Origin: Actinomycetes bacterium
GTDB taxonomy: Bacteria > Actinomycetota > Acidimicrobiia > Acidimicrobiales > Ilumatobacteraceae
Assembly (NCBI GenBank): GCA_025360105.1
Contig: JANYCT010000095.1
Location: 12,120-76,119, forward strand
Length of the DNA stretch: 64,000 nucleotides
Direction of reading: 5' to 3'
Position 1 is the stretch's first letter; every line of letters begins with the position of its first letter. Position numbers and translations under genes: made by a program. This document shows, piece after piece, positions 10,136-53,401 of this stretch. The notes under the pieces were generated by a model. The model saw nothing but the letters and a program-made list of their open reading frames with translations, ran no database searches and was not told where the DNA came from.

Positions 10136-10140
10136 CTCTT

Positions 10141-25532: not shown

Positions 25533-25534
25533 CG

Positions 25535-26941: not shown

Positions 26942-26987
26942 GTTACACTCCCTCAGCGGTTACTTCACCACTTGACGTGGGAAGCTG

Positions 26988-30122: not shown

Positions 30123-30137
30123 CGACGGCCCGGTTGC

Positions 30138-30737: not shown

Positions 30738-30824
30738 ATTGCAAGTGTTGTCCGTTCGCAACGCCGAGACGCGGATGACCACCGCACACTGATGACGGTG
30801 TGTGGTTCGGTAACCTGTCGCACA

Positions 30825-31265: not shown

Positions 31266-31305
31266 ATCACCCAGGATGACGCAAGCAGGATGAGCGGATG
31301 AGCGT

Positions 31306-31629
31306 GTGAGTTGTCTCTTCGTCTACGGAACACTGCTCCCGGGCGAGACTCGTTGGCACTTCCTCGAAGCGTTCGTCGTCGGTGACGGGCGCGCCGACTC
31401 GCTGCTGGGCCAACTCTTCGACACGGGCCTTGGGTATCCGGCGGCACGCGTGACGGGTGTTGATCACGCTGTTGACCCATTGTCCCGTCCGATCACTGGT
31501 GAGGGCATTCGTGCGTGGGTGTATGAGTATGGAGCCGATCCCAGCGACGACATCGAGTTGACGCGCATCGTCAGTGGCGATTGGTCGTCGCGCACTCTTG
31601 CGTCACAACCGGAGGGTGATCCGTGTTGA
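31306..31629 (+). CDS. Short gamma-glutamylcyclotransferase (AIG2/GGACT)-like protein
   Basis: 107 aa. N-terminal FVYGTLLPGE...LGQLFDTGLGYPAA and C-terminal AWVYEY match the family ends. The middle appears shortened. Confidence 0.5.
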   Translation: MSCLFVYGTLLPGETRWHFLEAFVVGDGRADSLLGQLFDTGLGYPAARVTGVDHAVDPLSRPITGEGIRAWVYEYGADPSDDIELTRIVSGDWSSRTLASQPEGDPC

Positions 31630-34600
31630 CAACCACAACCGACGTGCCAGAAGTGGCTGACGTGCAACATCTGTTGTTGCCGTACGTGTCGGATCTGCTC
31701 CTGCATTGGCCGCAGGATCGTGCGTGGCAGCAGCTCGAGGGCACGCTCGTCTCGGCCGATATCTCAGGTTTCACCGCGCTGTCCGAGCGGCTCGCTTCGC
31801 GTGGCCGTGAGGGCGCCGAAGAGTTGACCGCGCTCATCAACGACTGCTTCGAGGGCATGATTGAGAACTGTCATCGCAATGGTGGCGACATCGTGAAGTT
31901 TGGTGGTGATGCGCTCCTCGTGTGGTTCATGGGCGACTCCCACGCCCGCCGCGCGTGTCGCGCTGCCGTGGCCATGCGTCGCACGCTTCGTAACGAGCGG
32001 CGCACGTCGGATGGCAAGCTCGTGAAGCTCAAGGTGTCGATCGGTGCGCACAGCGATCTGCATACGTTTTTCATGGTCCGCAGCGGCCATTGCGAGCTCG
32101 TGGTCACCGGACCCGGCGTGACCCACACCGTCGATTGCGAGTCCGCGGCGTCGGCCGGCGAGATTCTGATCACGCATCAAACGGCAAAACTCCTGCCGGC
32201 GTCGTGGCTCGGCGAGGTGCGCCCAGAGGGCGTGATCGTTCGCCATGTGACTGCGGCCAAAGAGCGGTCGTCCTCCGACGCAACATCGACATCGACATCG
32301 ACATCGAGATCGAACGTGTCGCTTGCGTCGCCAACTCCTTCGGCCGCGGCGTTTATCCCCCCCGAGCAGCAGGCGCAGATCGTTGCCGGAGCCGTCAACG
32401 AACATCGACAGGTGGCAATCAGCTTTGTCGAGTTCTCGGGAACCGATGCCCTGATCGCTGAAGGCCAGATCGACACCCTCAGTGATCGACTTCAAACCTT
32501 CACCGATTCGGTTGCGGCCGCGTGCAGCCACTATGGGGCGTACTGGCTGGCTACCGACGTTTATCACGACGGTGGCAAGTTCATCCTCACGGCCGGTGTG
32601 CCGTTGTCGCTGGGTCAGGTCGAAGAGCGCATGTTGCGTGCGGTCCGTGACATCATCGATGCCGACCCGGGCATCAACCTGCGCGCCGGTATCAATCGCG
32701 GTTACGTGTTTGCCGGTGACCTGGGTTCAGATCGGCGTCGTACGTACACCACAATGGGCGACGCAGTGAACCTGTCGGCGCGGTTGATGTCGAAGGCAAC
32801 CTCGGGTGAGATCATTGTCAGTCGTCCCACGATGGAGTGGGCGTCGTCCCGCTTCGAGTACGCACCGCTCGAGCCGTTCTTCGTGAAGGGCAAGAGCGTG
32901 CCGATCTATGCGGGCCAACTCGGCCGCTGGCTCGGTCGCCAATCCGAACTCGATGGTGTCGATGTCGAGCTGTGTGGTCGTACCGACGAGCTCGCTCGGA
33001 TGCTCGCACTCGCCGACGGTGCAGCGCTGGGCCAGAGCTCGGTGGTGATGGTCACGGGCGAGCCGGGCATCGGCAAGAGCCGGCTTGCGGTCGAGGTGGC
33101 ACGCCAGCGACCCGACTTTGCGGTTGCCATCGCACGCTGTCAACCGTTCGACCGATTGTCCGCGTACTCCGTGACCGAACCTCTCATTCGCGCCATGCTC
33201 GGCATCGGCGCGGATGCAACGTCGACCGAAGCCGGCACCATGTTGGTCGAGTGGTTGATGAATCACGCTCCGACTCTGGTGCCCTTTGCCCCGTTGCTGG
33301 CCCTGACGGTCGGTGCCGATGTGGCATCCACCCGCGAAGCCGACGCGGTGATTCCCGAGTTCCGCCGCCTCCGTACGCTGCAATTGTTGGTCGAGATCGT
33401 GAACGCTTCGATCTCAGCGCCCACGATCGTGTTCATCGACGACATCAACCATGCCGACGACGCCACTCGGGAATTGGTCGAAGCGCTCGTATCGGGCGCC
33501 GGTCGGATCCCGTTGTTCATCATCGCGACGTCGGTGCCTGACGACACGCTCGCAGGCGAGCGCATCACGCTCGGTGGCCTCAACGAGCGCGAGGTGTCGT
33601 TGATGATCGACTCGCTCCTCGGTGATCGCGCGATCAGCGCAGCGACGGTCCGCAACCTCGTGCAACGATCCGATGGGAATCCCCTGTTCGTCACCGAACT
33701 GCTGAAGGTTTTGAGCGAGGATCCGCACGCAGCGATGCCATCGTCGTTGGAATCGCTGGTCGAGTCGCGTATCGACACGCTCGAGCCGGCCGATCGGCAA
33801 CTGCTTCGGTTCGCATCGGTACTCGGCAACGTTGTCGACATTCGCCTCCTTGCGCAGATGAGCGACGAATCGCTCGTGAGCCGGCAAGACCGTTGGGACC
33901 GGCTCGACCGTTTCCTCGAACGCGTTGGTCCAGGGGTGGTTCGTTTCCGTTACGACACCTTTCAGCGAGTTGTCTACGAGGGCCTGTCGTTCCGGGCGCG
34001 TCGTGGGGCGCACAGTCGGGTTGTCGAGCTCTTGGAAGGCTCACCCGACGAGGACGAGCGAGAACAGCTCGCGTTGCTTGCTTTCCACGCACATCGTGCC
34101 GGTGACGAATCGCGAACGTGGACATACAGCTGTGCGGCGGCAGCGGCAGCGGCAGAGGACGCGATGTTCGGCGAGGCGGCGCGTTTGTATGCGCTCGCGC
34201 TCGCGACGCATCGCCACGGTGCCACCGACGACGAGCTACGGGTCATCGCCGAGCGGGCAGGCGACGTGTACGAATCGGCTGGTCAGTTCGATAAGGCCGA
34301 GCATGCGCTGGGGCTGTCGTTACGTCACGCCACCGAGGGTCTCGATCAGGCACGCCTGTGGCGCAAGCGGGCCGAGGTGGCCGAGCGAACCGGCGACTAC
34401 GCCCGCGTGCAGCGACTGCTGGCACGCGCTGCCAAGGCACTGGCCGGTGTCCCATGGACCCAGGCAATCGGGGAGCATGCGCGTTGGGAGACCGCACAGA
34501 GCGCCTTTGCCCTTCGCCAATCACGACTCGAGGATGCGTGGAAGTACGCGACAGGGGCGTTTGCCTCGGCACAGCTCATCGAGGACTGGAAGACAGCGGC

Positions 34601-35435
34601 GCACGCTGCGCTCATGCTCGACAACATGGTCACCACGCTGCGCTGGGAGGGCACCATCGTGCAACGTCCCGATGTCGTGCAGCTCTATCAGCGCGCAAAG
34701 GATCCGATCGGTGAGGCGAAGTACCTCAGCAACCGCGCCGTCGATCACTACTTTGACGGCGAATGGCACAACGCGATCCGACTGCATCGCGAGTCATCCG
34801 AGCGATCGGCCGAATATGGCCACGTCGTGTCCGAGGCAACGGGCCTCAACAACATCGCCGAGATCCTCAGTGATCAGGGCCACTATGACGAAGCTCGCCA
34901 GATGCTGCGCGAGGCAAGTCGCACATGGCGATCCACCGGTTACGGAATCGGTATTGCGTTGGCCGAGGCAAATCTGGGTCGCCTCGCGACGCGCACCGGT
35001 CAGTACGAGGAGGCGCAGGCCATGCTCGAAGCGTCAGCACAACGGTTCGCAGAACTGGGTGCTGGCGGCTTTGTGGTGGAGGTTGCGCTGCGAATTGTCG
35101 ACAATGCCTTGCTGGCCGGTCGAACAGTGACCGAGGACATGTGGCCATCATCTGAAGAACTCGATCAGGACCCGACGTTGCAGGTGTACGCCAACCGATT
35201 GCGCGCGCTCCACGCCTTTGGGAGAGCAAGCAATGGAGCCGTCGCGCTCATCGATACGAGCATTGCGACCGCACGTTCGGCCGGGTTGCCCTTCGAGCTT
35301 GCCCTGTCGCTGCTCGCCCGGTCACGCATCGTGGTCGACGACGATGCGGCCCGCGAGGCGGCGACGTTGCTCGCCAGCCTCGATGTGGTGAACCCACCAC
35401 CATTCGCGGTTGTATCAAGTTCAGGTGAAATGTAG
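31623..35435 (+). CDS. Tandem class III nucleotidyl cyclase - AAA/STAND NTPase - TPR signalling protein
   Basis: 1270 aa. Cyclase domains at about aa 36-195 and 258-405, Walker A GEPGIGKS, Walker B IVFIDDINHADD, long helical/TPR C-terminus. No HTH at the C-terminus. Confidence 0.9.
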   Translation: MLTTTTDVPEVADVQHLLLPYVSDLLLHWPQDRAWQQLEGTLVSADISGFTALSERLASRGREGAEELTALINDCFEGMIENCHRNGGDIVKFGGDALLVWFMGDSHARRACRAAVAMRRTLRNERRTSDGKLVKLKVSIGAHSDLHTFFMVRSGHCELVVTGPGVTHTVDCESAASAGEILITHQTAKLLPASWLGEVRPEGVIVRHVTAAKERSSSDATSTSTSTSRSNVSLASPTPSAAAFIPPEQQAQIVAGAVNEHRQVAISFVEFSGTDALIAEGQIDTLSDRLQTFTDSVAAACSHYGAYWLATDVYHDGGKFILTAGVPLSLGQVEERMLRAVRDIIDADPGINLRAGINRGYVFAGDLGSDRRRTYTTMGDAVNLSARLMSKATSGEIIVSRPTMEWASSRFEYAPLEPFFVKGKSVPIYAGQLGRWLGRQSELDGVDVELCGRTDELARMLALADGAALGQSSVVMVTGEPGIGKSRLAVEVARQRPDFAVAIARCQPFDRLSAYSVTEPLIRAMLGIGADATSTEAGTMLVEWLMNHAPTLVPFAPLLALTVGADVASTREADAVIPEFRRLRTLQLLVEIVNASISAPTIVFIDDINHADDATRELVEALVSGAGRIPLFIIATSVPDDTLAGERITLGGLNEREVSLMIDSLLGDRAISAATVRNLVQRSDGNPLFVTELLKVLSEDPHAAMPSSLESLVESRIDTLEPADRQLLRFASVLGNVVDIRLLAQMSDESLVSRQDRWDRLDRFLERVGPGVVRFRYDTFQRVVYEGLSFRARRGAHSRVVELLEGSPDEDEREQLALLAFHAHRAGDESRTWTYSCAAAAAAAEDAMFGEAARLYALALATHRHGATDDELRVIAERAGDVYESAGQFDKAEHALGLSLRHATEGLDQARLWRKRAEVAERTGDYARVQRLLARAAKALAGVPWTQAIGEHARWETAQSAFALRQSRLEDAWKYATGAFASAQLIEDWKTAAHAALMLDNMVTTLRWEGTIVQRPDVVQLYQRAKDPIGEAKYLSNRAVDHYFDGEWHNAIRLHRESSERSAEYGHVVSEATGLNNIAEILSDQGHYDEARQMLREASRTWRSTGYGIGIALAEANLGRLATRTGQYEEAQAMLEASAQRFAELGAGGFVVEVALRIVDNALLAGRTVTEDMWPSSEELDQDPTLQVYANRLRALHAFGRASNGAVALIDTSIATARSAGLPFELALSLLARSRIVVDDDAAREAATLLASLDVVNPPPFAVVSSSGEM
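32283..32312 (+). repeat. Hexanucleotide microsatellite (ACATCG)x4 plus one imperfect unit
   Basis: Read directly at 32283-32306 (perfect) and 32307-32312 (AGATCG). Encodes TSTSTSTSRS in the linker between the two cyclase domains. Confidence 0.9.
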
Positions 35436-35542
35436 CCAGCACCCTGTTCAGACAGTGACAAGCGGAACTACTCTGCGTGCACTGCTGTTTAATCGGAACG
35501 GCGGGGGGATCTGGTCTGCAGCCAGAGGGAATCGGGTGTGTC

Positions 35543-38500
35543 GTGAGTCGTTCCGCATTTCGGAAGACGTGTGTATCTGTCGTCGCCATGTCGCTGTTGG
35601 GCGGCGTGCTCGTTGTGGGCGTGTCACCAGTTGTGCCCGCGCGCGCACTGGATCCGAACTATGTGATCGACTCCACCATCGATGCTCCCGATGCCGCACC
35701 CGGCGATGGCGTGTGCGCCAGCGCGAGCAATGGCTGCACCCTGCGGGCAGCGTTACAGCAGGCAGTTGCGGCCGGAGTGGACGCAACGATTACCGTGGAT
35801 TCGACTTTGTTGGCGACGGTACCCACCTTCGCTCTCGCAAGCGAGCTCATGGTTGCGGTGCCTGCAGGCACGACCATCACGCTGCAAGGCTCATCAACGA
35901 TCGTCGGGCGCCCCATCATCTCTGGTGGCGGCACACACCGGGTGTTCAATGTTGAAGGCCCCGGCGCGTTCCACATCGTTGGCTTTGAGATCACCGATGG
36001 CCAGGGTGCCATCATCGGGGCCGCCGGCACACCTCGTATTGATCCGACGACATCGACCGTGTACGAGCCCCAATCCGGCGGCTATCCCACCGATTCGGCT
36101 TGTGGACCCTCCAGCGCGCTGACCGGTATCTCGGTGCGGGTGAGCCTCGGCACCGGGTGGCCTTCGGCGTTTCGCCCGACGTGCACCGACGTGGTGATCG
36201 CCGGCAGTAGCTACACGCTCGGTGGCAGTCACCTCGGACCCTGGTTCCCCGATCGGCCCGCGGACGCCTTCGCCCTTCCGTCGACACCGGGCATTGCCGA
36301 CCAGCAGTGCCCGTCCGGCTCGGTGGCAACGGGTTTTGCGGGCCGATCGGGTTCGGCCGTCGACCGTGTCAAGTTGCGCTGCGCACCATTGCTGACCGAC
36401 GGAACCTTGGGGGCAGGAACCTATATCGGTGAGGTCGGCGACGATTTCATCGGCGACCCAAGCGGGCCGTCTCTAGAACGTGGTGGCAGCCCGTTCCCGC
36501 TGCATTCCTGTCCCGTCGGTGCCTTCGCGTCGGGGTTCACGGGTTTCTACGGCCTGAACTACAACTACGTGTACTCCCCCTACTATCCGGGCTATACCTA
36601 CACGGCGGAATCGTATATCCAGGGACTCGCGCTGACCTGCGCCAATTCCACCGATGCTCCCTCCATCACGCCGGGTAACGGTGGCGGCATTTTGGCCACT
36701 GGCGATCTCACACTCGACAAGGTGGCTGTGACCAACAACGCAACGGCGTCGGGCAACGGCGGTGGCGTGTATTCCAGCGCTGCACTCACCATCGTCAACA
36801 GCACCGTTTCCGGCAACGCAGCGGCCGGTGCAGGTGGCGGCGTCTATGCCGTTGGGTCGCTGTCGATCAACGATTCGACCATTCGTGACAACTCTGCCCA
36901 GGCCGCACCCATCGGGGGGGATTCACCCAAGGGTGGCGGCGTGTACATGGCGAATGAGAACTTCGACGTGGCCATGGCGGACACGGTCGTGTCGGGGAAC
37001 ACTGCGGCGTCCGACGGCGGTGGCCTGTCCATGGACGCGGCAGGTTTCACGATGGAGCGCTCTGCGATCACCTCGAACTCCGCGCCGAATGGAGAGGGCG
37101 GCGGTCTGTTCATGCCCTTCTTCGCGTCGACGGCTGCGTGCGGTGGTGAGTGTTCGGGATCGCTCGTCATGCGCAACGTCACCGTCGCTGGCAACGGTGC
37201 GCAGGGCGCCAGCGGATTGAAGATCAGTAACTTGAATCCTGTCGATGCCGCACTCACGAACGTGACTGTCACGAACAACGACAGCGTCGGTGGCTCAGCG
37301 GGGTTGAGCCTGAGCTATTGGGGGCACAAATCAATCGAAGACTCGATCGTGTCCGGCAATACCACTCCGTCGGAGAACAACGACTGCGACTATTTCTACT
37401 ATTACGGCAACGGCACGCCCAGTGTGATCTCCTCTGGCAACTGTTATGCGCAGGACCCCTCACCACAACTGAACGCCGATCCCGGGCTGAAGGCGTTGGG
37501 CAACTACGGCGGGCGCGTCAATGGTGCGGGCGACGTGATCCCCGTGACCCCGATCCCCGGCGACTCGAACGCAGCGGGCGCAGGTACGTGCCCAATGTCG
37601 GTTGACGCCCGTTCGCTTCCCCGGCCGGTTGCTTCGTGCGATCTCGGCGCCTTCGAGCTCACCCTCGCAGCCGGTGATGTCACCAATGTGCCGAATCTCG
37701 GCCAGCCGGTGATCCTGCCGTCGCTGAGGAGCGGTGCCAGTTCGGTGCCCATCACCGATATTCCTGCGTCGGCATTCCTTCCTGCCACCGGTAACGGCAG
37801 CGCAGATGCCACTGCTGGTGCCTCCACCGCACAGATTCGTGGTATCGCCCTCGGCGACACGGGGCTTTCGGCCGTGCAGTTGCGCCAGGTTTCATTGGGC
37901 GCCATTCCACTCGACTCAAAGGTGCTCGACTCGATCGCGCTCTCGCAGCTTCCGCTCACGTACTCCAGCTCCAGTGGCAACGGAACCGGCTGGCACGCCT
38001 ACCTTCTCGACGTCAACCTCACCGAACTGGCCGCACAGCCGCTCAACACCGTGTCGTTCGGCGAGGTGCTCGCAGCCACCAAGGATCTTGCGGTCGCGCA
38101 GCAGTTGAGCCTCGACCAGGTCGACTTCTCTGCGACCCCGCTGGGCTCGCTGCCTGTGGGCGCAATCGCCCTCGGCGCGGTGCCACTGTCAGCGCTTGTC
38201 TCGACTGATGGCTCACCGGTGGACTGGTGCGCCATCGTCGCCAAGTACTCCACCGCATCATGTGGTCCCGGCCAAGAGATCGATCCGACCACCGCCAGCC
38301 TTGTTTCCATCTCACTGCAGGGCGTTCCGTTGCGTCAGGTGCCGCTCAGCGCGATGCAGCTGCGCCAAGTAGATCTCACCCCGGCTCAGTTGCGTCAGGT
38401 ACCGCTGTACGGCGTTCCGTTGCGTCAGGTCGATATGGCCGCGACACAGTTGCGTCAGGTGCAGCTCCGTCAGGTGCAGCTCCGCCAAGTGCAGCTCCGC

Positions 38501-41500
38501 CAAGTGCAGTTGCGCCAGGTGAACCTGCAGGGTTCGCAGTTGCGCCAGGTGCAGTTGCGTCAGGTGAACTTGCAGGGTTCGCAGTTGCGCCAGGTGCAGT
38601 TGCGTCAGGTGATGCTCACGGGTTCACAGTTGCGTCAGGTGCAGTTGCGTCAGGTGCAGTTGCGCCAGATCGACATCAGCGCATCGCCGTTGGCCGGGGC
38701 ACTGCTCACCTCGTTCAGCAGCATTGGCTCGATCGTCGACTGCTCGGCGGTCGATTGTCTCAGCCCCACGCTCACGCTCGGCGATGTCGCTGGCCACTTC
38801 CTCCCCGGAGCGACACTCGGCGCGCTGCTCGACATGGCCCTTGCCAGTGTCAATTTCGGTGGCATCGGTGACATCACCGGCCCCGGTTTGGACACCGCCT
38901 TCGCCACTTTGACCCTGGGCGACATCCTCGATCTCCTGCTGGCCGACCCAACATTCCTCGACATGACGCTCGAGCAGTTGGGCGGACCCGACTTGCTCGC
39001 CTCGGTCACCTTCGGTGACATCGTGCCTGGCGCCTATGGCGACATCACGATCGGCGATGTCCTCTCGGCGCTGGCCGATGCCGTCCCCGGCGATCCGGGA
39101 TACGGCCTCACGCTCGGCGATCTCCTCGCCGGCATCCTGCCCCCATCGGATTTCCCGTGGCAGAACCTCGACCTCGCCACCGCGACGCCCGTATTGCAGG
39201 CGGCAACATTCCCGCAAGCCGAGAACTACAACGTCGATATCACCAGCACCCTGCCCGCGGGTACTCAGGTCACCGCCCACCTCAGTGTCCCGAAGGGATA
39301 CTTGATCAACCCGGCTTCGATTTCATTGCTCGACGGAGCGGCCGGCTCTCCTGAGCCGACCTCCACGCAGACGGTCGATGCGGTTACCGGCGTCACTACC
39401 GTCGATATCACGTTGTACCCGCGCGAGGGACTTTCGAAGCTCCGGTTCAGTGCTGTCTCGCCCGTTGACCTCGGGCAGACAGCCAGTTTCACCATCACGC
39501 TCGAGGCAGCTGACTTTGCTTCGTCGGCCACCGCTGGCCAGGAACCGTTCACCATCGTCGATGGTTCCGAACCCTCGAACGACAACCCGGCCTCCGCGCC
39601 GTTGGCCACTCCGGGCAACCTGTATCTGGGGCACATTCAGAATGCCTCTGATGTCGATTTCTTCCGTGTGCATCTCACGCAGGGTCAGAGGCTGTCGGCA
39701 TTCTTGTCGAACCTTCCGGCCGATTACGACCTGTTGCTGTTCGGTCCCGTGCCGGCGCGGCTGCGTGGTGTTGCGAACAAGTCGCTCACCCCCTCACCCG
39801 ACGGTGGCCTCAGTCTGATCAGTGCCGACAACGCCGTGAATGCCCAGGTTGGCGCCGACATCAACACGGCACCTCCTGCCGGGATGCAGTTGGTCAGTGT
39901 CTCGAGCCGACGCGGCACGGGCGACGAACGCATCGACACCGCTGCACTGCCAGCGGGCGACTACGCGATCAAAGTCATTGGCTACAACAGCGCGAGTAGT
40001 AATAAGCCATACAGCCTGCGCATTCGCATCAGTGGCAGCGCGGCTGGGGCAGCATGCTCGGCCGTCGATCCTGCGGCTCCAGCGACCGACGCGGTGCAGT
40101 CGTTGATCGATTCAGGCGCCACCACGATCACCCCCGACACCACCACCATCTTGCTCACCAACGTCGCCCGGGCGCAGCGTGCCTACGGCGGCAGCGACGC
40201 CACGGTCGTCGGTGCGCTGAATCGTTTCGTCACAACGGTGAACGCTGATCCTTCCAGCTACGCCGGCACGAGTGCCGCAGTGGTCACGCTCGACGACCTC
40301 ACGTCGTACGGAGCCTGGGATGGCGCACCTTGTGATCCAGCGGCGGCCAATGCTGTGGTCAGCGAGATCGGTGATCGCATCGATCTCCTCCGCAGCCAGT
40401 GGCCGAACATCAAGAACGTGGTGCTCGTCGGTGCCGACGATCAGATCCCGTTTGCTCGCGTGGCCGATGCGGTTCCGTCGAACAACGAGAGCGAATACGC
40501 CAGCACCTTTGCCGACAATTCGCCGCTGAAGTCGGCGCTGTCGTTGGGTTACATGCTCACCGACAACCCGTACGCAGTTGGCCATCCCATTGCCGTTGGC
40601 AGCAGGGAACTGTTCGTTCCCGACATCGCTGTGGGTCGCCTCGTGGAATCGGCCAACGACATCCAGACCGCGCTCGACAACTTCGTTGGTTTCAACGGTC
40701 ACCTCAACCCCACCACGGCCTTCAGCGCTGGCTACGACTTCCTCGCCGATGGCGCCACCGCCGTGGCCGACGCGATCAAGGGTGGCGGCATCGTCGATCC
40801 CGCCAACGTGAACACCGACCTAATCAGTGAAACGTGGAACCGTCAGCAACTGATCGATGCGCTCGTCGGTGCGACTCCGCCGGGCCTCGCATCGGTGAAC
40901 GCGCACTTCGATCACTATCGGGCGCTGCCTGCCGACCAGAATGCCCTCGGCCACCTCACCGATCCGTTCACGTTGACTGACGTGACGAAAGGTGCCCCGC
41001 TCAACGGTTCGGTGATCTTCAGTATGGGCTGCCATGCGGGTCTGTCCGTGTCTGATGCGTCAATCGGTGCCAACGACACGAGCATCTCGGCTGACTGGGC
41101 TCAAACCTTCGCCGGCGCCGGCGCCGACGTCTTCGTCGGCAACACGGGCTACGGATACGGCGATGACACAGTTGTCGGTGCCACCGAGGAACTGATGCAT
41201 CAGTTCGCCAAGCGACTCGATGGATCAATGACCATTGGCGACGCGATGGCATATGCCAAGCAGAAGTACACCGCCGATCTGGCCGTCGTGAGCCCCTTCG
41301 ACGAAAAGGTGGTCAGCGAGGTCGTGTTCTACGGCCTGCCGATGTACACCGTGGGTAAGGCCATCCCCCGGACTGCTCCGTTCGCTGCGCTCAATGTCGG
41401 TGCTGCCATCAACGATTCGACCGGACTCGATTCGACGATCCGGACCATCGATTTGCCGGTGAAGCTCACGAGTGGCCCGTCGAACCTACACCGCCAGGAC

Positions 41501-44500
41501 ACCACCAAGGGCTCGTTCTACGAGGTCAACGGTGACACGCAGACATCGCCGTATCAGCCGGTACAGCCGAGCCTTTCCATCGACGTCACGCAATCCGGTC
41601 GCACTGCGCGTGGGGCGCTCATCACCGAGTTGACCTCCCAAGACGACAAGCCGTTCGATCCCGTGTACATGACACCAATCGATGACTCCACCACCGCGAA
41701 CCCCGAGGCCAACGTTGCTGGCGCCGTGTTCCCATCGGTGTTGCAGACGGTCAATCACCTCGAAACAGCCGGCGGCCCTAGCGATCAGTTGGTGTTCATC
41801 CCCGGCCAGTTCCGTGGCGACCCGGACTCGCCCACGGGGTCGGGCACGCAACGGTTGTTCACCAATGCGACCGCCTTGGTCTACTACGCGCCCGACGGCA
41901 ACACCGATACCACGCCTCCGACAATTGTGTCGACGAGGTCGACGGTGCTCACCGGATCCGCCGCCTTCTCGGTGAACGCCTTTGATGAGTCGGGCATCAG
42001 CCGGGTCTATGTGCTGTACACCGATTCAGCTCACCCGGGTACGTGGTTCGGCGCCGACCTTGCGTCGGCCGGTGGAGATACCTATACAGGTATTGCCACG
42101 GCCCCGACCGGCGCCGAGACGATCGACTACATGGTCCAGGTCGTCGACAGTGCCGGCAACGTGTCGGTCAGCTCGAACAAGGGCGACAACTTTGTCGGCC
42201 GAAACAACCCCACTCCTGTGGTGCTCGTGGGCCCCAAGACCTACGACGGAACCACGAGCGCGACGGTGGCTTCGTGCACCTTGTATGACGCAGCCGGTCT
42301 TGTGGTTGCTGACCCTGGAGTGGGTTGTGAAGCCACGGCGACCTTCGCGTATGCCGGTGCGGGCGACATCGTGCCGGTGAACGTCGATGGGATCACACTG
42401 ACGGGCACGAACGCCGCGCTCTATGCATTGTCCTCGACGACGGCCACAACCTTTGGCTCGATCTCACCGGTTTCATTGTCGGTAAGTCCAACCGACACCA
42501 ACGTGATCTACGGGCATCCGGCCACCTATCCGTTCGTTGTGTCGGGTTTCGTGAATGGCGATACGGACGGTTCGGGTGTGAAGCCGGCAAAGGGCTTCGT
42601 AGCACCAGTGTGTTCGTCGTCCTACACCACGTCCACGCCAGTGGCAGATTCACCGGTGGAGATCTCGTGCAGTGGTGGCTCGGCCGATAACTACAGCTTT
42701 GACACGTACTACTTCGGATCGCTCACCATCTCGCAGGCCCCGGTGCACCCCGTGGTCGCAGTCCTCAACAAGGTTGCGGACGGCACCACCGATGCAACCG
42801 TGTCGTCGTGCACGTTGTACGACGACACGAATGTAGCGGTGTCCGACGCCAACGTCGGTTGCTCCGCTACGTCGGCATCCTTCGACTCTGTCGGTCCAGG
42901 TATTGGCATCGGTGTGACGGTCTCTGGAATCACGCTGTTTGGCGGCACCGCCGTCAACTACTCGTTGAATTCAGGCACGGCGTTCACGATGGCAAACATC
43001 ACACTGCACGATGATCTGCATGCCGTCGTCACCGTGGATGACAAGCCATACGACGGCGGCACCAACGCAACCGTGTCGTCGTGCACGGCGCTCGACATCA
43101 ACGATCTACCCGTCGTTGCTGTTGGCTGTGACGTCGGCAACGCCTCCTTCCAGAGCGCTGATGCAGGTATCGGCATTCCAGTGGATGTTTCGGGCATCAC
43201 ACTGACCGGCGCCAACGCTGCTGACTATTCGCTGGCCTCGGACACGGTGTCGGCGACAGCGTCGATCACTCCGGTTGTGCTCACGGTGACCCCGCAACCC
43301 ACCGATGTCATCTACGGCCGCACGGCGGCCTATCCGTTCGATGTGACGGGTTTCGTGAATGGCGAAACCGACGGGTCCGGCATCAAGCCGGCCAAGGGAT
43401 ACGTGGCCCCGGAGTGTTCTTCGGGTTACAAGACCACGTCAGACATTTCGGAGGCACCGTTTGATGTCTTCTGTGCACGCGGTACGGCTGACAACTACAC
43501 CTTTGATGTGGCTGCACATTCGGTGTTGACGATGCTGCGGGCGCAAGTGCACGCAGTGGTCGTGGCGAACAACAAGCCCTATGACGGCACGACAGATGCA
43601 ACGTTGTTGTCGTGCACGCTGCTGGACGCCGGTAACGAGGTTGTGGTCGGTGCCGGTTGTGATGCGACGGTTTCCTTCACGAGTGCCTATGCGGGTCTCC
43701 ATGTTCCCGTGTCGGTGGATCTGGTCACGCTGAATGGCCCCGATTCGGGGAACTATGTACTGCAGTCGTCGTCGGTTGATCCAGCAGCCATTGGTCAGGT
43801 CACCCTCACGGTGACTCCGGTTGCGAAGTCGGTGACGTATGGTGATGCTCCGCCGGTGTACACGTTTGGTGTGTCCGGGTTTATCACGGGTGAGGGTGCG
43901 GCCAACGCGGCGGGGTATGTGGCGCCGTCGTGCACGTCGTTGTACACGGCAGCGACACCGGTGGCTTCGTCTCCGTCGATTACGTGTAGTGGTGGCAGCG
44001 CGAGCAATTATTCGTTCTCGTATGGCACGGCTGCGGTCACGGTGACGCCAGCCAGCCTGCTGGTGGATTACACCGGTCCATTGACCGCAACGTCGGCAAC
44101 GGCATCAGCGACGGTTACCTTGACGGCAACGGTCACGGGGCTCTGCGCCAATGGGGCTGCCGTGACCATGACGGTGACGGACGATGGCACCGGCGTCGTG
44201 CTCGGCTCGTACCCACTGGTCGCATCCGCGAGCGGTTTGGTGACGAAGTCTGGCGTGGTGCTGCCGGTGGGCAGTGTGTACGCCATCGACGTCGTCGCCG
44301 CCGATTCCGCAAACTGCATCGGGGCCAGCGACACTAGCTTCCTGGATGTGACCCCGGTGACGCCTCCGACCGGAAACTCTCACGGTTCGGGCTCGTACAT
44401 GGTGGGCCTCACGAAGGTCAACTTCGGGTTCTACGGATTCACCAAAGCGGTCAAGGGCGGCTTCACCTCGGGCGGCTACGTGGACTGGAAGGTATCCCGC

Positions 44501-44830
44501 AACGTCCGGTTCACCGGTGCGATCTCTGGATACACCGCAGCGTGCCCCGCGGGCACCGCGACACCTGCGGGCACGAAGTGCTCGTATATGACCGGTACCG
44601 GAAGCTTGTTCACCTGGGTGCCCGGCAGGGTTCGCGGGGGGTCGTGGGTGAGGACATCTACGGGTGTGGCATTCCAGTTGACGGTTGCCGATGGCGGCGT
44701 GGTCACACCAAGGATTGGGCCACCGACCCGTAACCCGGACTACATCCGCATGAATTTCCCGGTGCCGGTGGTGGTCGGCGAAACGACCACGCTGGTGGTC
44801 ACATCGTCCGGGAACATCGGAGTGCAGTAA
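35543..44830 (+). CDS. Giant secreted multidomain protein (about 3,095 aa): CSLREA-like motif, right-handed beta-helix repeats, pentapeptide array, PPC domain, clan-CD-like peptidase domain, YDG/MBG-like modules
   Basis: ORF 35477-44830. I prefer GTG 35543, which yields a Sec-type signal peptide VSRSAFRKTCVSVVAMSLLGGVLVVGVSPVVPARA/LD. Domain calls come from motifs read in the translation (see findings). Confidence 0.9.
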   Translation: MSRSAFRKTCVSVVAMSLLGGVLVVGVSPVVPARALDPNYVIDSTIDAPDAAPGDGVCASASNGCTLRAALQQAVAAGVDATITVDSTLLATVPTFALASELMVAVPAGTTITLQGSSTIVGRPIISGGGTHRVFNVEGPGAFHIVGFEITDGQGAIIGAAGTPRIDPTTSTVYEPQSGGYPTDSACGPSSALTGISVRVSLGTGWPSAFRPTCTDVVIAGSSYTLGGSHLGPWFPDRPADAFALPSTPGIADQQCPSGSVATGFAGRSGSAVDRVKLRCAPLLTDGTLGAGTYIGEVGDDFIGDPSGPSLERGGSPFPLHSCPVGAFASGFTGFYGLNYNYVYSPYYPGYTYTAESYIQGLALTCANSTDAPSITPGNGGGILATGDLTLDKVAVTNNATASGNGGGVYSSAALTIVNSTVSGNAAAGAGGGVYAVGSLSINDSTIRDNSAQAAPIGGDSPKGGGVYMANENFDVAMADTVVSGNTAASDGGGLSMDAAGFTMERSAITSNSAPNGEGGGLFMPFFASTAACGGECSGSLVMRNVTVAGNGAQGASGLKISNLNPVDAALTNVTVTNNDSVGGSAGLSLSYWGHKSIEDSIVSGNTTPSENNDCDYFYYYGNGTPSVISSGNCYAQDPSPQLNADPGLKALGNYGGRVNGAGDVIPVTPIPGDSNAAGAGTCPMSVDARSLPRPVASCDLGAFELTLAAGDVTNVPNLGQPVILPSLRSGASSVPITDIPASAFLPATGNGSADATAGASTAQIRGIALGDTGLSAVQLRQVSLGAIPLDSKVLDSIALSQLPLTYSSSSGNGTGWHAYLLDVNLTELAAQPLNTVSFGEVLAATKDLAVAQQLSLDQVDFSATPLGSLPVGAIALGAVPLSALVSTDGSPVDWCAIVAKYSTASCGPGQEIDPTTASLVSISLQGVPLRQVPLSAMQLRQVDLTPAQLRQVPLYGVPLRQVDMAATQLRQVQLRQVQLRQVQLRQVQLRQVNLQGSQLRQVQLRQVNLQGSQLRQVQLRQVMLTGSQLRQVQLRQVQLRQIDISASPLAGALLTSFSSIGSIVDCSAVDCLSPTLTLGDVAGHFLPGATLGALLDMALASVNFGGIGDITGPGLDTAFATLTLGDILDLLLADPTFLDMTLEQLGGPDLLASVTFGDIVPGAYGDITIGDVLSALADAVPGDPGYGLTLGDLLAGILPPSDFPWQNLDLATATPVLQAATFPQAENYNVDITSTLPAGTQVTAHLSVPKGYLINPASISLLDGAAGSPEPTSTQTVDAVTGVTTVDITLYPREGLSKLRFSAVSPVDLGQTASFTITLEAADFASSATAGQEPFTIVDGSEPSNDNPASAPLATPGNLYLGHIQNASDVDFFRVHLTQGQRLSAFLSNLPADYDLLLFGPVPARLRGVANKSLTPSPDGGLSLISADNAVNAQVGADINTAPPAGMQLVSVSSRRGTGDERIDTAALPAGDYAIKVIGYNSASSNKPYSLRIRISGSAAGAACSAVDPAAPATDAVQSLIDSGATTITPDTTTILLTNVARAQRAYGGSDATVVGALNRFVTTVNADPSSYAGTSAAVVTLDDLTSYGAWDGAPCDPAAANAVVSEIGDRIDLLRSQWPNIKNVVLVGADDQIPFARVADAVPSNNESEYASTFADNSPLKSALSLGYMLTDNPYAVGHPIAVGSRELFVPDIAVGRLVESANDIQTALDNFVGFNGHLNPTTAFSAGYDFLADGATAVADAIKGGGIVDPANVNTDLISETWNRQQLIDALVGATPPGLASVNAHFDHYRALPADQNALGHLTDPFTLTDVTKGAPLNGSVIFSMGCHAGLSVSDASIGANDTSISADWAQTFAGAGADVFVGNTGYGYGDDTVVGATEELMHQFAKRLDGSMTIGDAMAYAKQKYTADLAVVSPFDEKVVSEVVFYGLPMYTVGKAIPRTAPFAALNVGAAINDSTGLDSTIRTIDLPVKLTSGPSNLHRQDTTKGSFYEVNGDTQTSPYQPVQPSLSIDVTQSGRTARGALITELTSQDDKPFDPVYMTPIDDSTTANPEANVAGAVFPSVLQTVNHLETAGGPSDQLVFIPGQFRGDPDSPTGSGTQRLFTNATALVYYAPDGNTDTTPPTIVSTRSTVLTGSAAFSVNAFDESGISRVYVLYTDSAHPGTWFGADLASAGGDTYTGIATAPTGAETIDYMVQVVDSAGNVSVSSNKGDNFVGRNNPTPVVLVGPKTYDGTTSATVASCTLYDAAGLVVADPGVGCEATATFAYAGAGDIVPVNVDGITLTGTNAALYALSSTTATTFGSISPVSLSVSPTDTNVIYGHPATYPFVVSGFVNGDTDGSGVKPAKGFVAPVCSSSYTTSTPVADSPVEISCSGGSADNYSFDTYYFGSLTISQAPVHPVVAVLNKVADGTTDATVSSCTLYDDTNVAVSDANVGCSATSASFDSVGPGIGIGVTVSGITLFGGTAVNYSLNSGTAFTMANITLHDDLHAVVTVDDKPYDGGTNATVSSCTALDINDLPVVAVGCDVGNASFQSADAGIGIPVDVSGITLTGANAADYSLASDTVSATASITPVVLTVTPQPTDVIYGRTAAYPFDVTGFVNGETDGSGIKPAKGYVAPECSSGYKTTSDISEAPFDVFCARGTADNYTFDVAAHSVLTMLRAQVHAVVVANNKPYDGTTDATLLSCTLLDAGNEVVVGAGCDATVSFTSAYAGLHVPVSVDLVTLNGPDSGNYVLQSSSVDPAAIGQVTLTVTPVAKSVTYGDAPPVYTFGVSGFITGEGAANAAGYVAPSCTSLYTAATPVASSPSITCSGGSASNYSFSYGTAAVTVTPASLLVDYTGPLTATSATASATVTLTATVTGLCANGAAVTMTVTDDGTGVVLGSYPLVASASGLVTKSGVVLPVGSVYAIDVVAADSANCIGASDTSFLDVTPVTPPTGNSHGSGSYMVGLTKVNFGFYGFTKAVKGGFTSGGYVDWKVSRNVRFTGAISGYTAACPAGTATPAGTKCSYMTGTGSLFTWVPGRVRGGSWVRTSTGVAFQLTVADGGVVTPRIGPPTRNPDYIRMNFPVPVVVGETTTLVVTSSGNIGVQ
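38312..38716 (+). repeat. 27 consecutive in-frame pentapeptide units (13 exact QLRQV), a 15-nt-period coding repeat
   Basis: Read directly. Leu/Ile/Met occupies every fifth residue from SLQGV to LLTSF. The DNA units use varied synonymous codons. Confidence 0.9.
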
Positions 44831-44835
44831 GCAGT

Positions 44836-44871
44836 TGCGTGCTGATCGTGGGGGGTCACGATCAGCACGCA
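44836..44871 (+). terminator. Perfect 15-bp stem / 6-nt loop hairpin between the giant gene and the ABC genes (attenuator or terminator candidate)
   Basis: TGCGTGCTGATCGTG-GGGGGT-CACGATCAGCACGCA, starting 6 nt after the stop codon. There is no clean U-tract (CATGGTGTTATC follows). Confidence 0.5.
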
Positions 44872-44908
44872 CATGGTGTTATCGGGGACCGACCAAGGGG
44901 GAGAGACC

Positions 44909-45937
44909 ATGCTCAGAGCGGCATTACGCGATTTGCAATGGCGCAAGAAGAGATTCGTGATTGCGATGCTCGGGGTCGCGCTCGTCTTCGCAATGGGTTT
45001 GATCATGACCGGTCTCACCGAGTCGTTCTCGCTCGAGGTGGATCGCACGTTGAACGCGATCGGCGCCGAGGCTTGGTTGGTCTCCGACAGTGCGACCGGC
45101 CCCTTCACATCGTTCTCGCCGGTGCCCACCGCACTGGTCACCGACTCGGAGGCGTCGCCGGCATTGGTGTTGCGCCAGAGCATCGATGACAACGGCAAGA
45201 TCGTCGACGTCGTCGTGATTGGAGCACAACCCGGCCGACTGGGGTCGGTGACTGCGTCGAGCGGCAAGAGCGTTGCGGGTCCCGGTGAGGCCGTTGTGGA
45301 CAACGACTTCACCCTTGCCGGTCTCGGTCAGTCGTTCTCCATCGGTGGGAAGAGCTTCAAGGTGGTCGGCACCGTGTCGGGGCAACGCCTCTACGCAGGA
45401 TTACCAATGGTCTACATCGCGCTCTCCGAAGCCCAAAAAGTGTCGCTGCAGGGTCAGCCGTACGCGTCGACGTTCATCTACGCAAAAATGCCCACAACTA
45501 TCCCGACGGGGTTGAAGGCGATGTCGAACGCCGAGGTGCGAACCGACGTGCTGCGCCCATTGCAAAACGCAATGGACTCGATCGCGCTCGTGCGTGTGTT
45601 GCTGTGGATCGTGGCTGCCACGATCATCGGTTCGGTGCTGTACCTACAGGCGATGGAACGCACACGCGACTTCGCGGTGTTTAAGGCAACGGGTACCTCC
45701 ACTGCCGCGATCGGTGTGGGACTCGCGCTCCAGGCGGTGGTGCTTTCGCTGGCCGCCGCTGCGTTGGCCGCGGTCTTCGCCGCCTTGCTGGCACCGACGT
45801 TCCCCATGCACGTAGAGATACCGACGAGTGCATACGAGCTCCTTCCCGTGGTCACGGTGGTGGTTGGTCTGCTCGCCAGCTTGATCGCACTCCGCAAGAC
45901 CGCAACCGTCCAACCCGCTGCTGCGTTCGGAGGCTGA
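44909..45937 (+). CDS. FtsX/MacB-type ABC transporter permease
   Basis: ORF 44873-45937. Start ATG 44909 (AAGGGGGAGAG upstream). MLRAALRDLQWRKKRFVIAMLGV..., a large extracytoplasmic loop after TM1, and three C-terminal TM helices. Confidence 0.88.
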   Translation: MLRAALRDLQWRKKRFVIAMLGVALVFAMGLIMTGLTESFSLEVDRTLNAIGAEAWLVSDSATGPFTSFSPVPTALVTDSEASPALVLRQSIDDNGKIVDVVVIGAQPGRLGSVTASSGKSVAGPGEAVVDNDFTLAGLGQSFSIGGKSFKVVGTVSGQRLYAGLPMVYIALSEAQKVSLQGQPYASTFIYAKMPTTIPTGLKAMSNAEVRTDVLRPLQNAMDSIALVRVLLWIVAATIIGSVLYLQAMERTRDFAVFKATGTSTAAIGVGLALQAVVLSLAAAALAAVFAALLAPTFPMHVEIPTSAYELLPVVTVVVGLLASLIALRKTATVQPAAAFGG

Positions 45938-45938
45938 G

Positions 45939-46928
45939 ATGTCACAACCCGGAGCCGATCTCCATATCAAGGACCTCACAGTCGAGTTCAGCAAGGGCGA
46001 CTACACGGTGCGCCCCCTCGACAACATGAGTGTCACCGTGAAAGCCGGTTCGCTGGCGCTGCTGCTGGGGCCGTCGGGCTGCGGTAAGACCACCTTGCTG
46101 TCGTGTCTTGCAGCGATCCTCAAACCTACGTCGGGCACGATCACCTATGGCGACAAGGACATCACGGCGTTGAGCGGCAAGGCCCTCACCGATCACCGAC
46201 GACACGGTGTCGGTGTGGTCTTCCAGGCGTTCAACCTGGTGCCGAGCCTGAACAGCATCGAGAACGTTGCGGTACCCATGCGATCGGCCGGCGTGAAGGC
46301 GCGTGCAGCAAAGGCAAAGTCGATCGAGTTGCTCGAGGGAGTTGGTCTCGGTGAGCGCTTGACGCACAAGCCGAACAGCCTCAGCGGAGGTCAGCAGCAG
46401 CGCGTTGCCATCGCTCGCGCGCTCGCGCTCGATGCGCCACTGGTGCTCGCCGATGAGCCGACCGCTCATCTCGACTACATCCAGGTCGAGGGCGTGCTGC
46501 GTCTCATTCGCCGTCTCACCGATGGCGGGCGCGTGGTGGTGGTGTCGACTCACGACGATCGCATGTTGCCCCTCGCCGATCAGATCATCGAGATGCGCCC
46601 CGACTTCTTGCCCCAGAGCGACGCTGCTCCCGTACAGGTCACCCTCGTTGCCGGTCAACACCTTTTCAATCAGGGCGATCCGAGCGATCTCATCTACATG
46701 GTCGAGGATGGCCAGGTCGATGCCGTGCAGGATCTCGGCGAAGGCGAGATCGTGTTGGCCACGATGGGCCCCGGTGAGCACCTCGGCGAGATGGGACCGC
46801 TGTTTGGTCTGCGACGATCAGCGACAGTGCGCGCCCGCACGGACGCAACACTCACCGGCTACACCGTGAAGGCATTCCGTGATCTGGTTGGCGCTGAACG
46901 GCTGCCCTCGCTGATACGCGGCCGATAG
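45939..46928 (+). CDS. ABC transporter ATP-binding protein fused to a C-terminal cyclic-nucleotide-binding domain
   Basis: 329 aa. Walker A GPSGCGKTT, signature LSGGQQQRVAIARA, Walker B LVLADEPT. From about aa 232: ...LFNQGDPSDLIYMVEDGQV...GEHLGEMGPLFGLRRSATVRA (phosphate-binding cassette). GGAGG 5 nt upstream. Starts 1 nt after the permease stop. Confidence 0.9.
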   Translation: MSQPGADLHIKDLTVEFSKGDYTVRPLDNMSVTVKAGSLALLLGPSGCGKTTLLSCLAAILKPTSGTITYGDKDITALSGKALTDHRRHGVGVVFQAFNLVPSLNSIENVAVPMRSAGVKARAAKAKSIELLEGVGLGERLTHKPNSLSGGQQQRVAIARALALDAPLVLADEPTAHLDYIQVEGVLRLIRRLTDGGRVVVVSTHDDRMLPLADQIIEMRPDFLPQSDAAPVQVTLVAGQHLFNQGDPSDLIYMVEDGQVDAVQDLGEGEIVLATMGPGEHLGEMGPLFGLRRSATVRARTDATLTGYTVKAFRDLVGAERLPSLIRGR

Positions 46929-47004
46929 CTACTCCTCACCACCGGGTGACGTGTGAGCCGTCGACGCGCGATACTGGAGCGACCCTCCACGTCAGGAACA
47001 TGTC

Positions 47005-47421
47005 ATGAACGAGATCATTGTCGGAGTCGATGAAAGCGCTACAGCCCACAAGGCTGCCGTCGAGGCTTCCGAACTGGCGTCGATGACCAACCGCCCCTTG
47101 CACGTGGTGATGGCGTTGTCGCGCGGCTCGGTGCAGCAGGTGCGTAGTGGATCAGAGACCTGGATCCACGATCCGATCACCCATGGCGAGCAGGCCCTTG
47201 CGGCGCTCGTTGGCGAGTTGGCGTGCACGGCGCCGGTTACGTATTCGGTGGTGATGAAAGATCCGGCGAAAGCGCTCTGCGATGAGGCCGCACGGCTCGA
47301 CGCGTGGATGATCGTGGTCGGTAACAAGCGGGTGCAGGGGGCTGCGCGCGTGTTGGGCTCGATTGCCAACGACGTGGCCAAGACGGCGCCGTGCAATGTG
47401 CTGATCGTGCACACCACCTAA
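47005..47421 (+). CDS. Universal stress protein family
   Basis: 138 aa. IIVGVDESATAHKAA... and ...MIVVGNKRVQGAARVLGSIANDVAKTAPCNVLIVH. Confidence 0.85.
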   Translation: MNEIIVGVDESATAHKAAVEASELASMTNRPLHVVMALSRGSVQQVRSGSETWIHDPITHGEQALAALVGELACTAPVTYSVVMKDPAKALCDEAARLDAWMIVVGNKRVQGAARVLGSIANDVAKTAPCNVLIVHTT

Positions 47422-47433
47422 AACGGGCCCTGA

Positions 47434-48024: not shown

Positions 48025-48056
48025 GCGCAGCCACGATGACGCAGTACCGTCGCGGC

Positions 48057-53397: not shown

Positions 53398-53401
53398 TGT
53401 G

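Follow-up and report, generated by a model that had tools for sequence, protein, structure and literature searches.

A predicted giant exoprotein with a gingipain-type C25 core, encoded beside a soluble adenylyl cyclase-like gene in Ilumatobacteraceae, as a probable member of a large unnamed family

The high-molecular-weight gingipains RgpA and Kgp of Porphyromonas gingivalis (MEROPS family C25, clan CD) are processed into protease-adhesin complexes on the surface. Full-length soluble adenylyl cyclase (sAC) combines a C1-C2 pair of cyclase homology domains (CHDs) with a P-loop STAND module and TPR repeats. Here, we describe a locus that joins counterparts of both in neighbouring genes. It lies in a 64,000-nucleotide stretch of contig JANYCT010000095.1 (hereafter the window) from an Actinomycetes bacterium of the family Ilumatobacteraceae (assembly GCA_025360105.1), in which an open reading frame (ORF) for a protein of 3,095 amino acids (aa), the giant gene, follows a gene for an sAC-like cyclase. 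According to our analysis, the giant gene probably encodes a Sec-secreted member of a large, unnamed exoprotein family of Actinomycetota (Acidimicrobiia, Thermoleophilia, and Nocardioidaceae) and Chloroflexota. Its component parts are of known kinds; the core of about 1,500 aa as a family, the size of this family, and its near-obligate pairing with the cyclase are undescribed in the sources searched.

The frame of the giant gene is open on the + strand for 3,117 codons, beginning at 35477, with a likely GTG start at 35543 (GAGGGA 9-14 nt upstream) and a stop codon ending at 44830; the longest antisense ORF within it encodes 255 aa. The gene is laid out as follows, with the basis of each assignment in brackets.

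35543..44830, + strand: giant ORF, 3,095 aa and the stop codon (ORF call; independent contig coverage)
35543..35647, + strand: Sec-type signal peptide, aa 1-35, cleavage ARA/LD (read from the sequence; sole stretch with KD19>1.9)
35648..36028, + strand: N-terminal region with the CSLREA-like motif GDGxC..GCT[LI]RAAL, aa 36-162 (conserved in the closest relative, L085)
36029..36667, + strand: Cys-rich insert, aa 163-375 (repeat alignment; missing from L085)
36668..37702, + strand: variable N-terminal module of right-handed beta-helix-like GGG[VL]x repeats, aa 376-720 (regular-expression count)
37703..38722, + strand: start of the core, VPITDIP motif and pentapeptide-type solenoid with a W-C...C insert, aa 721-1060 (Pfam, family consensus, Tandem Repeats Finder)
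38723..39172, + strand: core, VDCxxVDC motif and five [LIV]T[LIF]GD repeats, aa 1061-1210 (motif counts, family consensus)
39173..39562, + strand: core, Ig-like segment, aa 1211-1340 (retained by 63-65 of 82 homologs)
39563..40042, + strand: core, PPC domain of the pre-peptidase C-terminal type, aa 1341-1500 (Pfam, below the cut-off)
40043..41377, + strand: core, gingipain-type C25 cysteine peptidase, aa 1501-1945 (Pfam, AlphaFold2, Foldseek)
41378..42217, + strand: core, post-peptidase Ig-like beta-sandwiches, aa 1946-2225 (AlphaFold2 model)
42218..44062, + strand: variable C-terminal module, four YDG and three MBG-type adhesin modules, aa 2226-2840 (Pfam, motifs)
44063..44827, + strand: orphan C-terminal beta-rich domain, aa 2841-3095 (no library match)

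The peptidase domain carries the comparison with gingipains. The Pfam model Peptidase_C25 (PF01364) scored 33.7 bits over aa 1573-1913, above its cut-off of 23, although it reached E<=1e-4 in just 7 of 20 family members and is thus marginal for this clade. The AlphaFold2 (AF2) model of residues 1501-1960 had a predicted local distance difference test score (pLDDT) of 89.4 and a predicted TM-score (pTM) of 0.90, and the top four Foldseek matches in the Protein Data Bank (PDB) were catalytic domains of RgpB and Kgp (E=7e-13 to 2e-10; TM-scores of 0.52-0.56 over ~440-460 aligned columns; identity of 10-14%), followed by separase, CHAT proteases, and caspases. Model and fold search together show the caspase-hemoglobinase fold with the two-subdomain catalytic unit of gingipains. 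The catalytic residues lie in the motifs SVNAH(1788)FDH and FSMGC(1830)HAG, with the codon for His1788 at 40904-40906 and that for Cys1830 at 41030-41032. In a 29-homolog alignment Cys1830 was invariant and His1788 at least 90% conserved, and both were invariant in 20 full-length members; the dyad was assigned by motif and conservation. The domain is thus a gingipain-type clan-CD enzyme and looks catalytically competent.

Besides the fold and the His/Cys dyad, the giant protein shares with RgpA and Kgp a succession of parts, namely a peptidase, then one or more Ig-like sandwiches, then adhesin modules within a predicted secreted polyprotein. It differs from them, apart from the low identity, in having no confirmed N-terminal pro-domain and no match to the C-terminal sorting domain of the type IX secretion system in the Pfam scans, and in a conserved pre-peptidase region of ~780 aa (solenoid, TxGD repeats, Ig-like segment, and PPC) that is absent from gingipains. 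Its hosts belong to Gram-positive-type phyla, and its gene is coupled to a cyclase gene.

Homologs were sought with segments of the giant protein. Scanning genomes with the C25 alignment yielded at least 578 loci; the adjacency counts given here refer to the 80 best of them, which come from Acidimicrobiia, Thermoleophilia/Gaiellales, Nocardioidaceae, and Chloroflexota. With a profile of C25 and the sandwiches behind it, a search of 1.84 billion representatives gave 2,593 clusters at E<=1e-30; the 150 matches listed were mostly embedded in proteins of 1,000-4,200 aa. The host ORFs of homologs encode 2,000-5,158 aa and begin with signal-peptide-like N-termini. In the alignment, aa ~720-2225 were common to 50-79 of 82 homologs, with sharp edges, whereas aa 1-720 were common to at most about 10 of the 82 and aa 2250-3095 to almost none. 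The family consensus before the peptidase comprises VPxxDIP, LxSIP-type pentapeptide runs with a W-C...C insert, VDCxxVDC, TLGD repeats, an Ig-like segment, and PPC. Judged from these alignments, the family is defined by a core of ~1,500 aa made up of the pentapeptide solenoid, CxxxDC/TxGD repeats, an Ig-like segment, PPC, C25, and Ig-like sandwiches, and the N-terminal beta-helix and the C-terminal YDG/MBG block of the window protein are, on the same basis, lineage-specific add-ons. An earlier note on this stretch, made from the sequence alone, had called the protein a mosaic with an unusual domain combination; the combination is not unique, as the part from the pentapeptides through PPC and C25 to the sandwiches makes up the core that a very large family has in common, and only the two ends are mosaic add-ons. 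Its remark that the combination was not recognised as a described family agrees with our search of the literature and curated libraries, in which neither the core architecture nor the family is described.

The variable ends include Kelch, PD40/TolB-like, FG-GAP, DUF11, PKD, RTX-like, dockerin-like, lectin-like, and IPT modules. An LPSTG motif with a transmembrane segment was found in one family member only (L027); therefore, the anchor-less state is the rule in the family. The closest relative found, L085, has the same order of cyclase and then giant gene (identity of 62% and 41-62%) and retains the CSLREA-like start and the beta-helix, without the Cys-rich insert, the YDG/MBG block, and the orphan C-terminus. 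In L001, L002, L085, and several MFD loci, all from long-read-derived metagenome-assembled genomes (MAGs), the gene calls break the giant and the cyclase gene into several pieces each, apparently as a result of frameshifts; such split calls may explain why the matches of the first protein search were all of 802 aa or less.

Thousands of Actinomycetota and Chloroflexota from soil, sediment, and freshwater have genes of this family for proteins of 2,000-5,000 residues. Where they are named at all, its members are called hypothetical proteins or, in a few cases, 'peptidase', and they are only marginally detected by the Pfam C25 model. The shared gingipain-type core and the exchangeable binding ends provide a working annotation for these genes as extracellular protease-adhesins, and they suggest that abundant uncultured lineages have a large capacity for proteolysis outside the cell.

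The second subject of our analysis is the gene that precedes the giant gene in the window.

31623..35435, + strand: cytoplasmic sAC-like adenylate cyclase of 1,270 aa with tandem CHD C1-C2, AAA_16 STAND P-loop, and TPR (Pfam, PDB, adjacency)

Its product matched AAA_16 (E=1e-18) and TPR_12 (E=2e-17) in Pfam, has the Walker A motif GEPGIGKS, and showed no hydrophobic segment in its translation, as is typical of a soluble P-loop STAND NTPase with TPR. The best PDB match of CHD1 was human ADCY10 C1 (E=1e-13). The metal-binding Asp residues D46 and D96 of CHD1 are present in 52 of 52 partners, with loss of the Asn/Arg pair, and CHD2 has lost the Asp pair and keeps K319 (46/52), T/S/A376 (51/52), N383 (51/52), and R387 (52/52). 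The residues of a single active site, i.e., the Asp pair in C1 and Lys, Thr (replacing Asp), Asn, and Arg in C2, are thus divided between the two domains throughout the partner family, and the conserved residues of the cyclase partners indicate one active site, arranged as in soluble adenylyl cyclase.

Among known proteins, those nearest to the partner gene product are ADCY10, the cyclase-ATPase-TPR proteins of the Mycobacterium tuberculosis Rv0386 type, and NCBIfam TIGR03903, a kinase/cyclase fusion of TOMM clusters. With ADCY10 it shares the tandem C1-C2, the sAC-like split of catalytic residues, and the succeeding P-loop STAND and TPR parts. The match to TIGR03903 is partial (150 bits vs. 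a cut-off of 706), and the partner has neither a kinase domain nor a helix-turn-helix. According to the description by its curators, TIGR03903 likewise has conserved neighbours that make a secreted product (TOMM clusters). No described member of the known cyclase-ATPase-TPR proteins is tied to a giant secreted peptidase, and the literature searched contains no description of the pairing.

A cyclase homolog adjoins the giant gene in 63 of 82 loci; as 15 of the 19 exceptions are cut by contig ends, this amounts to ~63 of 67 testable loci. The gaps between the two genes are mostly below 700 bp, and the pairing occurs in both phyla and in all four orientations:

Cyclase downstream of the giant gene, same strand: 26 loci
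Cyclase upstream of the giant gene, opposite strand (divergent): 18 loci
Cyclase downstream of the giant gene, opposite strand (convergent): 16 loci
Cyclase upstream of the giant gene, same strand, as in the window: 3 loci

All-vs-all clustering of the ORFs showed the cyclase to be the sole conserved neighbour of the family; the neighbourhood search proposed in the earlier note thus led to a partner, the upstream cyclase-STAND-TPR gene, that the note itself had not flagged. The contig CAVYPR010000001.1 carries two giant-cyclase pairs ~260 kb apart (L023 and L039), whose giant proteins have 5,158+ aa (the ORF being cut by the end of the locus) and 3,757 aa. The giant cores of the two pairs are 67% and their cyclases 79% identical, and the pair thus looks to have been duplicated as a unit. 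The near-obligate pairing with a full-length sAC-like cyclase offers a testable link between cyclic AMP (cAMP) signalling and a secreted giant protein, and its study could reveal the signal sensed by the STAND-TPR part of such cyclases. The pair has cultured carriers, Nocardioides marmorisolisilvae and Ilumatobacter nonamiensis, which makes ordinary genetics possible.

Taken together, these data lead us to favour the reading that the giant protein is an extracellular protease-adhesin resembling the high-molecular-weight gingipains and under cAMP control, where the coupling to cAMP is what we infer; we regard this reading as likely. The protein would work in the manner of these gingipains: its variable modules would dock it to a target or to its own cell surface, and the C25 domain would cleave extracellular substrates, possibly including the giant polyprotein itself. 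The cyclase would set the production or activity of the giant protein via cAMP. In the window, the pair forms a 13.6-kb indel, whose position makes it probable that the giant gene is transcribed together with an older FtsX-ABC-Usp block whose ATPase has a domain for binding cyclic nucleotide monophosphates (cNMP), which would offer a local, lineage-specific route for cAMP action. A stronger version, in which the C25 exoprotein and the STAND cyclase form a dedicated two-gene signalling module that is widespread in Actinomycetota and Chloroflexota, is tentative and, in our judgement, rather doubtful. Such a module might be wired through protease-released peptides sensed by the TPR domain of the cyclase, or the cyclase might license deployment of the giant protein. 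If it exists, it would be an undescribed kind of system and would give access, from the bacterial side, to the function of the STAND/TPR region of soluble adenylyl cyclases.

Several observations weigh against the reading of a cAMP-controlled protease-adhesin. The adjacency statistic describes the 80 nearest relatives and not the whole family. When loci were fetched from metagenomes by the cyclase alignment, a C25 core was nearby in 15 of 80, and in 2 of the 5 cyclase loci having 10 kb on both sides; therefore, the cyclase family is broader than the pairing, an asymmetry that would be expected if the giant protein were one type of client among those that the cyclase regulates. A conserved cAMP receptor is absent from the module, and no membrane component joining the cytoplasmic cyclase to the secreted protein was found. 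CRP-like sites with at most two mismatches occurred in 16% of the regions upstream of giant genes vs. 5% of mostly coding controls, an enrichment too weak to claim a CRP-type operator. The region after C25 matched a profile of the RgpB pro-domain at E=0.005, whereas its modelled fold gave generic Ig-like matches and did not confirm a gingipain pro-domain after the peptidase; upstream of C25, nothing resembling a pro-domain was detected. No C-terminal LPXTG, second transmembrane segment, SLH, or peptidoglycan-binding domain was found in the giant protein, nor the C-terminal combination of LPXTG, hydrophobic segment, and basic tail seen in sortase-anchored proteins, in line with the earlier note. 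None of the RNA runs contains the giant gene of the window. Exact read-length contigs in a rhizosphere metatranscriptome matched the homolog of Nocardioides marmorisolisilvae and its cyclase, a faint indication that a member of the family is transcribed.

In the window, the giant gene is followed by genes for a permease and an ATPase that had been proposed in the earlier note as its partner, and the surrounding sequence bears directly on this proposal.

44873..46928, + strand: FtsX/MacB_PCD permease and ABC ATPase fused to a cNMP-binding domain (Pfam)
31283..44880, no strand: segment of 13.6 kb absent from the sister genomes L166 and L167, with a 107-aa ORF, the cyclase, and the giant gene (blastn synteny, gene tables)
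35425..35474, + strand: block shared with the sister FtsX upstream region, GTGAAATG..CTGTTCAGACAGT..CTAnTCT (sequence comparison)

Window positions 22580-31282 and 44881-51943 match contiguous sister sequence at ~83% nucleotide identity, and the interval 31283-44880 between them corresponds to only ~220 bp in the sister genome (blastn). The latter retains FtsX-ABC(cNMP)-Usp without cyclase or giant gene at this site and has a different giant-cyclase pair on another contig (L008). It follows that the ABC block does not require the giant gene and that the giant gene and the cyclase gene together constitute a movable unit. At the ends of the indel, neither direct nor inverted repeats of at least 7 nt were present, and an integrase was found neither among the scanned window ORFs nor as a conserved neighbour, which leaves an origin from a mobile element unsupported. 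The shared block appears once in the window and in no more than 2 of 168 fetched loci, namely in the cyclase-giant spacer of the window and the ftsX spacer of the sister genome. It contains a candidate promoter (-35 TTCAGA, 16 nt, -10 TACTCT) and appears to be the promoter region of the ftsX operon now placed before the giant gene; it would follow that giant, ftsX, and abc form one transcript in the window. A scan of sigma-70 promoter and terminator consensus was uninformative, with no promoter found by consensus, and an Rfam scan of the window matched no RNA element. The 107-aa ORF (31306-31629, + strand) overlaps the cyclase start; its FVYGTLxxG beginning looks gamma-glutamylcyclotransferase/AIG2-like by eye, it has no NCBIfam match, and it is not conserved in other loci.

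FtsEX mechanically activates wall hydrolases, and by analogy the FtsX/MacB-type permease with the cNMP-binding ATPase could be a dedicated partner that exports, anchors, or mechanically activates the giant protein, with cAMP gating the ATPase. The window permease has FtsX and MacB_PCD domains, and its ATPase is FtsE/MacB/LolD-like, as in FtsEX/MacB-type (type VII) ABC systems, from which it differs by the cNMP-binding domain. Such a partnership would suit the spacing of the same-strand genes (43 bp from giant gene to permease, then 1 nt to the ATPase), the single transcript suggested by the shared upstream block, and the neighbouring cyclase, to which a cNMP-binding domain fits; the permease and ATPase genes also lie beside the giant gene, in another arrangement, in L035 (Nocardioidaceae) and L062 (Ilumatobacteraceae). 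However, these two and the window are the only 3 of ~67 testable loci with the FtsX/ABC-cNMP pair, which is absent from the other ~64 and from L085, so that the conserved co-occurrence of a partner system is lacking. Any ABC gene at all was present in only 12 of 83 loci, mostly as a generic ATPase, and the ATPase orthologs, 60-97% identical and labelled Ilumatobacter or Ilumatobacteraceae (labels that likewise assign the organism of the window to this family), are kept in this lineage, in the sister genome also without the pair. A dedicated role is therefore quite unlikely, and the ABC system, although probably co-transcribed with the giant gene in the window, would be at most a lineage-specific accessory. 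A loop akin to RRNPP quorum sensing but with a cyclase output, in which peptides cut by C25 from the giant protein or from its substrates are re-imported, bound by the TPR of the STAND cyclase, and answered with cAMP, would account for the near-obligate, orientation-independent adjacency, the co-duplication of pairs, the conserved protease dyad, and the combination of a STAND-TPR sensor architecture with an intact cyclase effector. It is nevertheless unlikely, as no peptide permease is conserved in the clustered loci, many related cyclases have no giant gene nearby, and the ligand is purely hypothetical.

Polymorphic toxins are known to use clan-CD domains as processing peptidases (PMC3482391), and a caspase-like peptidase inside a chain with hypervariable C-termini, ending here in a 255-aa domain that matches no library, could also be read as a MARTX-like or polymorphic-toxin effector whose peptidase frees the toxic C-terminus inside a competitor. 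This is improbable: the variable modules identified are of binding or structural types, the N-termini vary as much as the C-termini, neither Pfam nor PADLOC revealed a toxin domain (although the orphan C-terminal domain might be one), and no small immunity-like gene is conserved downstream in the clustered loci. The PADLOC matches were generic (cyclase, cNMP, and ABC), which speaks against a known defence system as well. A role of C25 as a transpeptidase or maturase that processes or attaches other surface proteins, like PorU, which is itself a C25 member, is very improbable; latent PorU appeared as a weak match at rank 28 of the post-C25 fold search, and family members lack anchors of their own, but the best structural matches are gingipains and not PorU, no conserved substrate or sorting-signal family lies nearby, and the variable binding modules would be left unaccounted for. 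Lastly, the suspicion that the ORF is an assembly chimera or a pseudogene draws on the assembly graph, which is broken at two sites only, a 15-nt tandem repeat at ~38.5 kb (38447-38668; it encodes the QLRQV array) and 43.8-44.0 kb, where short unitigs lie at 4-5x local depth, so that the number of modules and the connection with the last ~255 residues depend on repeated k-mers. Against this, the gene is covered by Logan contigs of four runs from a single sediment-metagenome study at even depth, equal on either side of the second site, and without indels, one contig spans 35933-43837, the frame is open, and the core is collinear with many homologs. An apparent in-frame deletion of 333 nt removing the catalytic dyad was spurious and came from an unrelated 352-nt contig with two 23-nt matches. 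The giant ORF is an intact, real gene, and a chimera or pseudogene is extremely improbable.

Outside the peptidase, the domain order read in the earlier note was largely recovered, as almost all listed domains were found in that order, although the beta-helix, the CSLREA-like region, and PPC stayed below threshold or without a library match. The signal peptide with its ARA/LD cleavage site is supported by n, h, and c regions (read by eye) and by being the only hydrophobic 19-mer of the whole protein. The CSLREA-like motif (CTLRAAL), kept in L085, has no NCBIfam match, and the N-terminal 685 aa gave no match in a sequence search of the PDB. The Cys-rich insert consists of three CPxGxxxxGFxG repeats, each bracketed by cysteines. 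Six copies of GGG[VLI]x lie between aa 380 and 519 (regular expression), and the beta-helix matches in Pfam are below the cut-off (NosD, E=0.006; Chlam_PMP, E=0.026); this module is common to ~10 of 82 homologs only. The pentapeptide array exceeds its Pfam cut-offs (Pentapeptide_4, 62.8 vs. 38; Pentapeptide, 44.6 vs. 20.2) and contains 17 LRQ[VI] units, so that tandem units of the A(D/N)LXX type match the profiles; homologs have LxSIP-type units at the same position. An internal LPATG at aa 746 was discounted as a sorting signal, since it is not conserved in homologs and ~0.17 such motifs would be expected by chance in a chain of this length (our estimate).

The hTxGD repeats named in the earlier note are present in five copies by motif, the Ig-like segment at aa 1211-1340 has no Pfam match, and PPC scored 23.4 bits vs. 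a cut-off of 25.9 (E=1e-4) and passes the cut-off in the homolog L035. A domain scan and structure prediction by segment had been suggested there too, and gave, besides the C25 model (pLDDT of 89), an all-beta model of the post-C25 region with pLDDT 83, for which the fold search returned generic Ig/FN3 matches only (E>1e-3); the last sandwich matched DUF7743 below the cut-off (E=0.005). The clan-CD peptidase and the YDG/MBG-like modules of that reading were likewise detected above the Pfam cut-offs, the latter as four YDG and two MBG_2 domains, with a third MBG-like YG motif identified by pattern. Within this third MBG module, short unitigs (43808-44028) lie at 4-5x local k-mer depth in 4 of 4 runs; the stretch is not repeated inside the gene, and therefore similar sequence exists elsewhere in the community or genome. 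The C-terminal domain of ~255 aa proved as unique as had been supposed: its last 256 aa had no match in Pfam or among PDB sequences, and no homolog in a collection of 5.8 billion proteins at the sensitivity of that search. The protein resembles large Gram-positive YDG/MBG adhesins in its C-terminal YDG (four) and MBG (two to three) modules and Pmp/CASH beta-helix proteins in the GGGxx repeats that follow a CSLREA-like motif; it differs from both in that these modules are accessory, being absent from most family members, and in lacking LPXTG, SLH, and an autotransporter barrel.

Some further features of the family and the window were recorded. The three nearest homologs of the genome scan (L003, L004, and L005) have near-perfect TGTCA-N6-TGACA palindromes ~17-72 nt upstream of the start codon that comes first in the frame of the giant ORF. 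These palindromes, which are exact in L003 and L004 and have one arm GCACA in L005, may be operators of the Crp/Fnr family; clear palindromes were confined to these three loci. GC skew is negative (-0.03 to -0.09) across the giant gene (36000-42000) and positive in the flanks, with a steady GC content of ~0.63. Positions 244-14656 represent the chromosomal origin region, with gyrA, gyrB, recF, dnaN, and dnaA on the - strand and yidC, jag, parA, and parB on the + strand, and the giant gene lies ~26 kb from dnaA. A gene on the - strand (48886-51969) encodes a 1,027-aa fusion of a phosphotransferase (APH), Peptidase_M23, and class-III aminotransferase that is conserved in the sister genomes; between it and rpsF sits a second indel relative to L166 (51944-54223, ~2.3 kb), which includes an ApbE-family gene (53318-54199) and is absent from L166. 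Other second-messenger genes nearby encode two PAS-GGDEF-EAL proteins (26988-30122 and 59398-62049) and, right after the ABC ATPase, the Usp protein (47005-47421); some mycobacterial Usp proteins bind cAMP.

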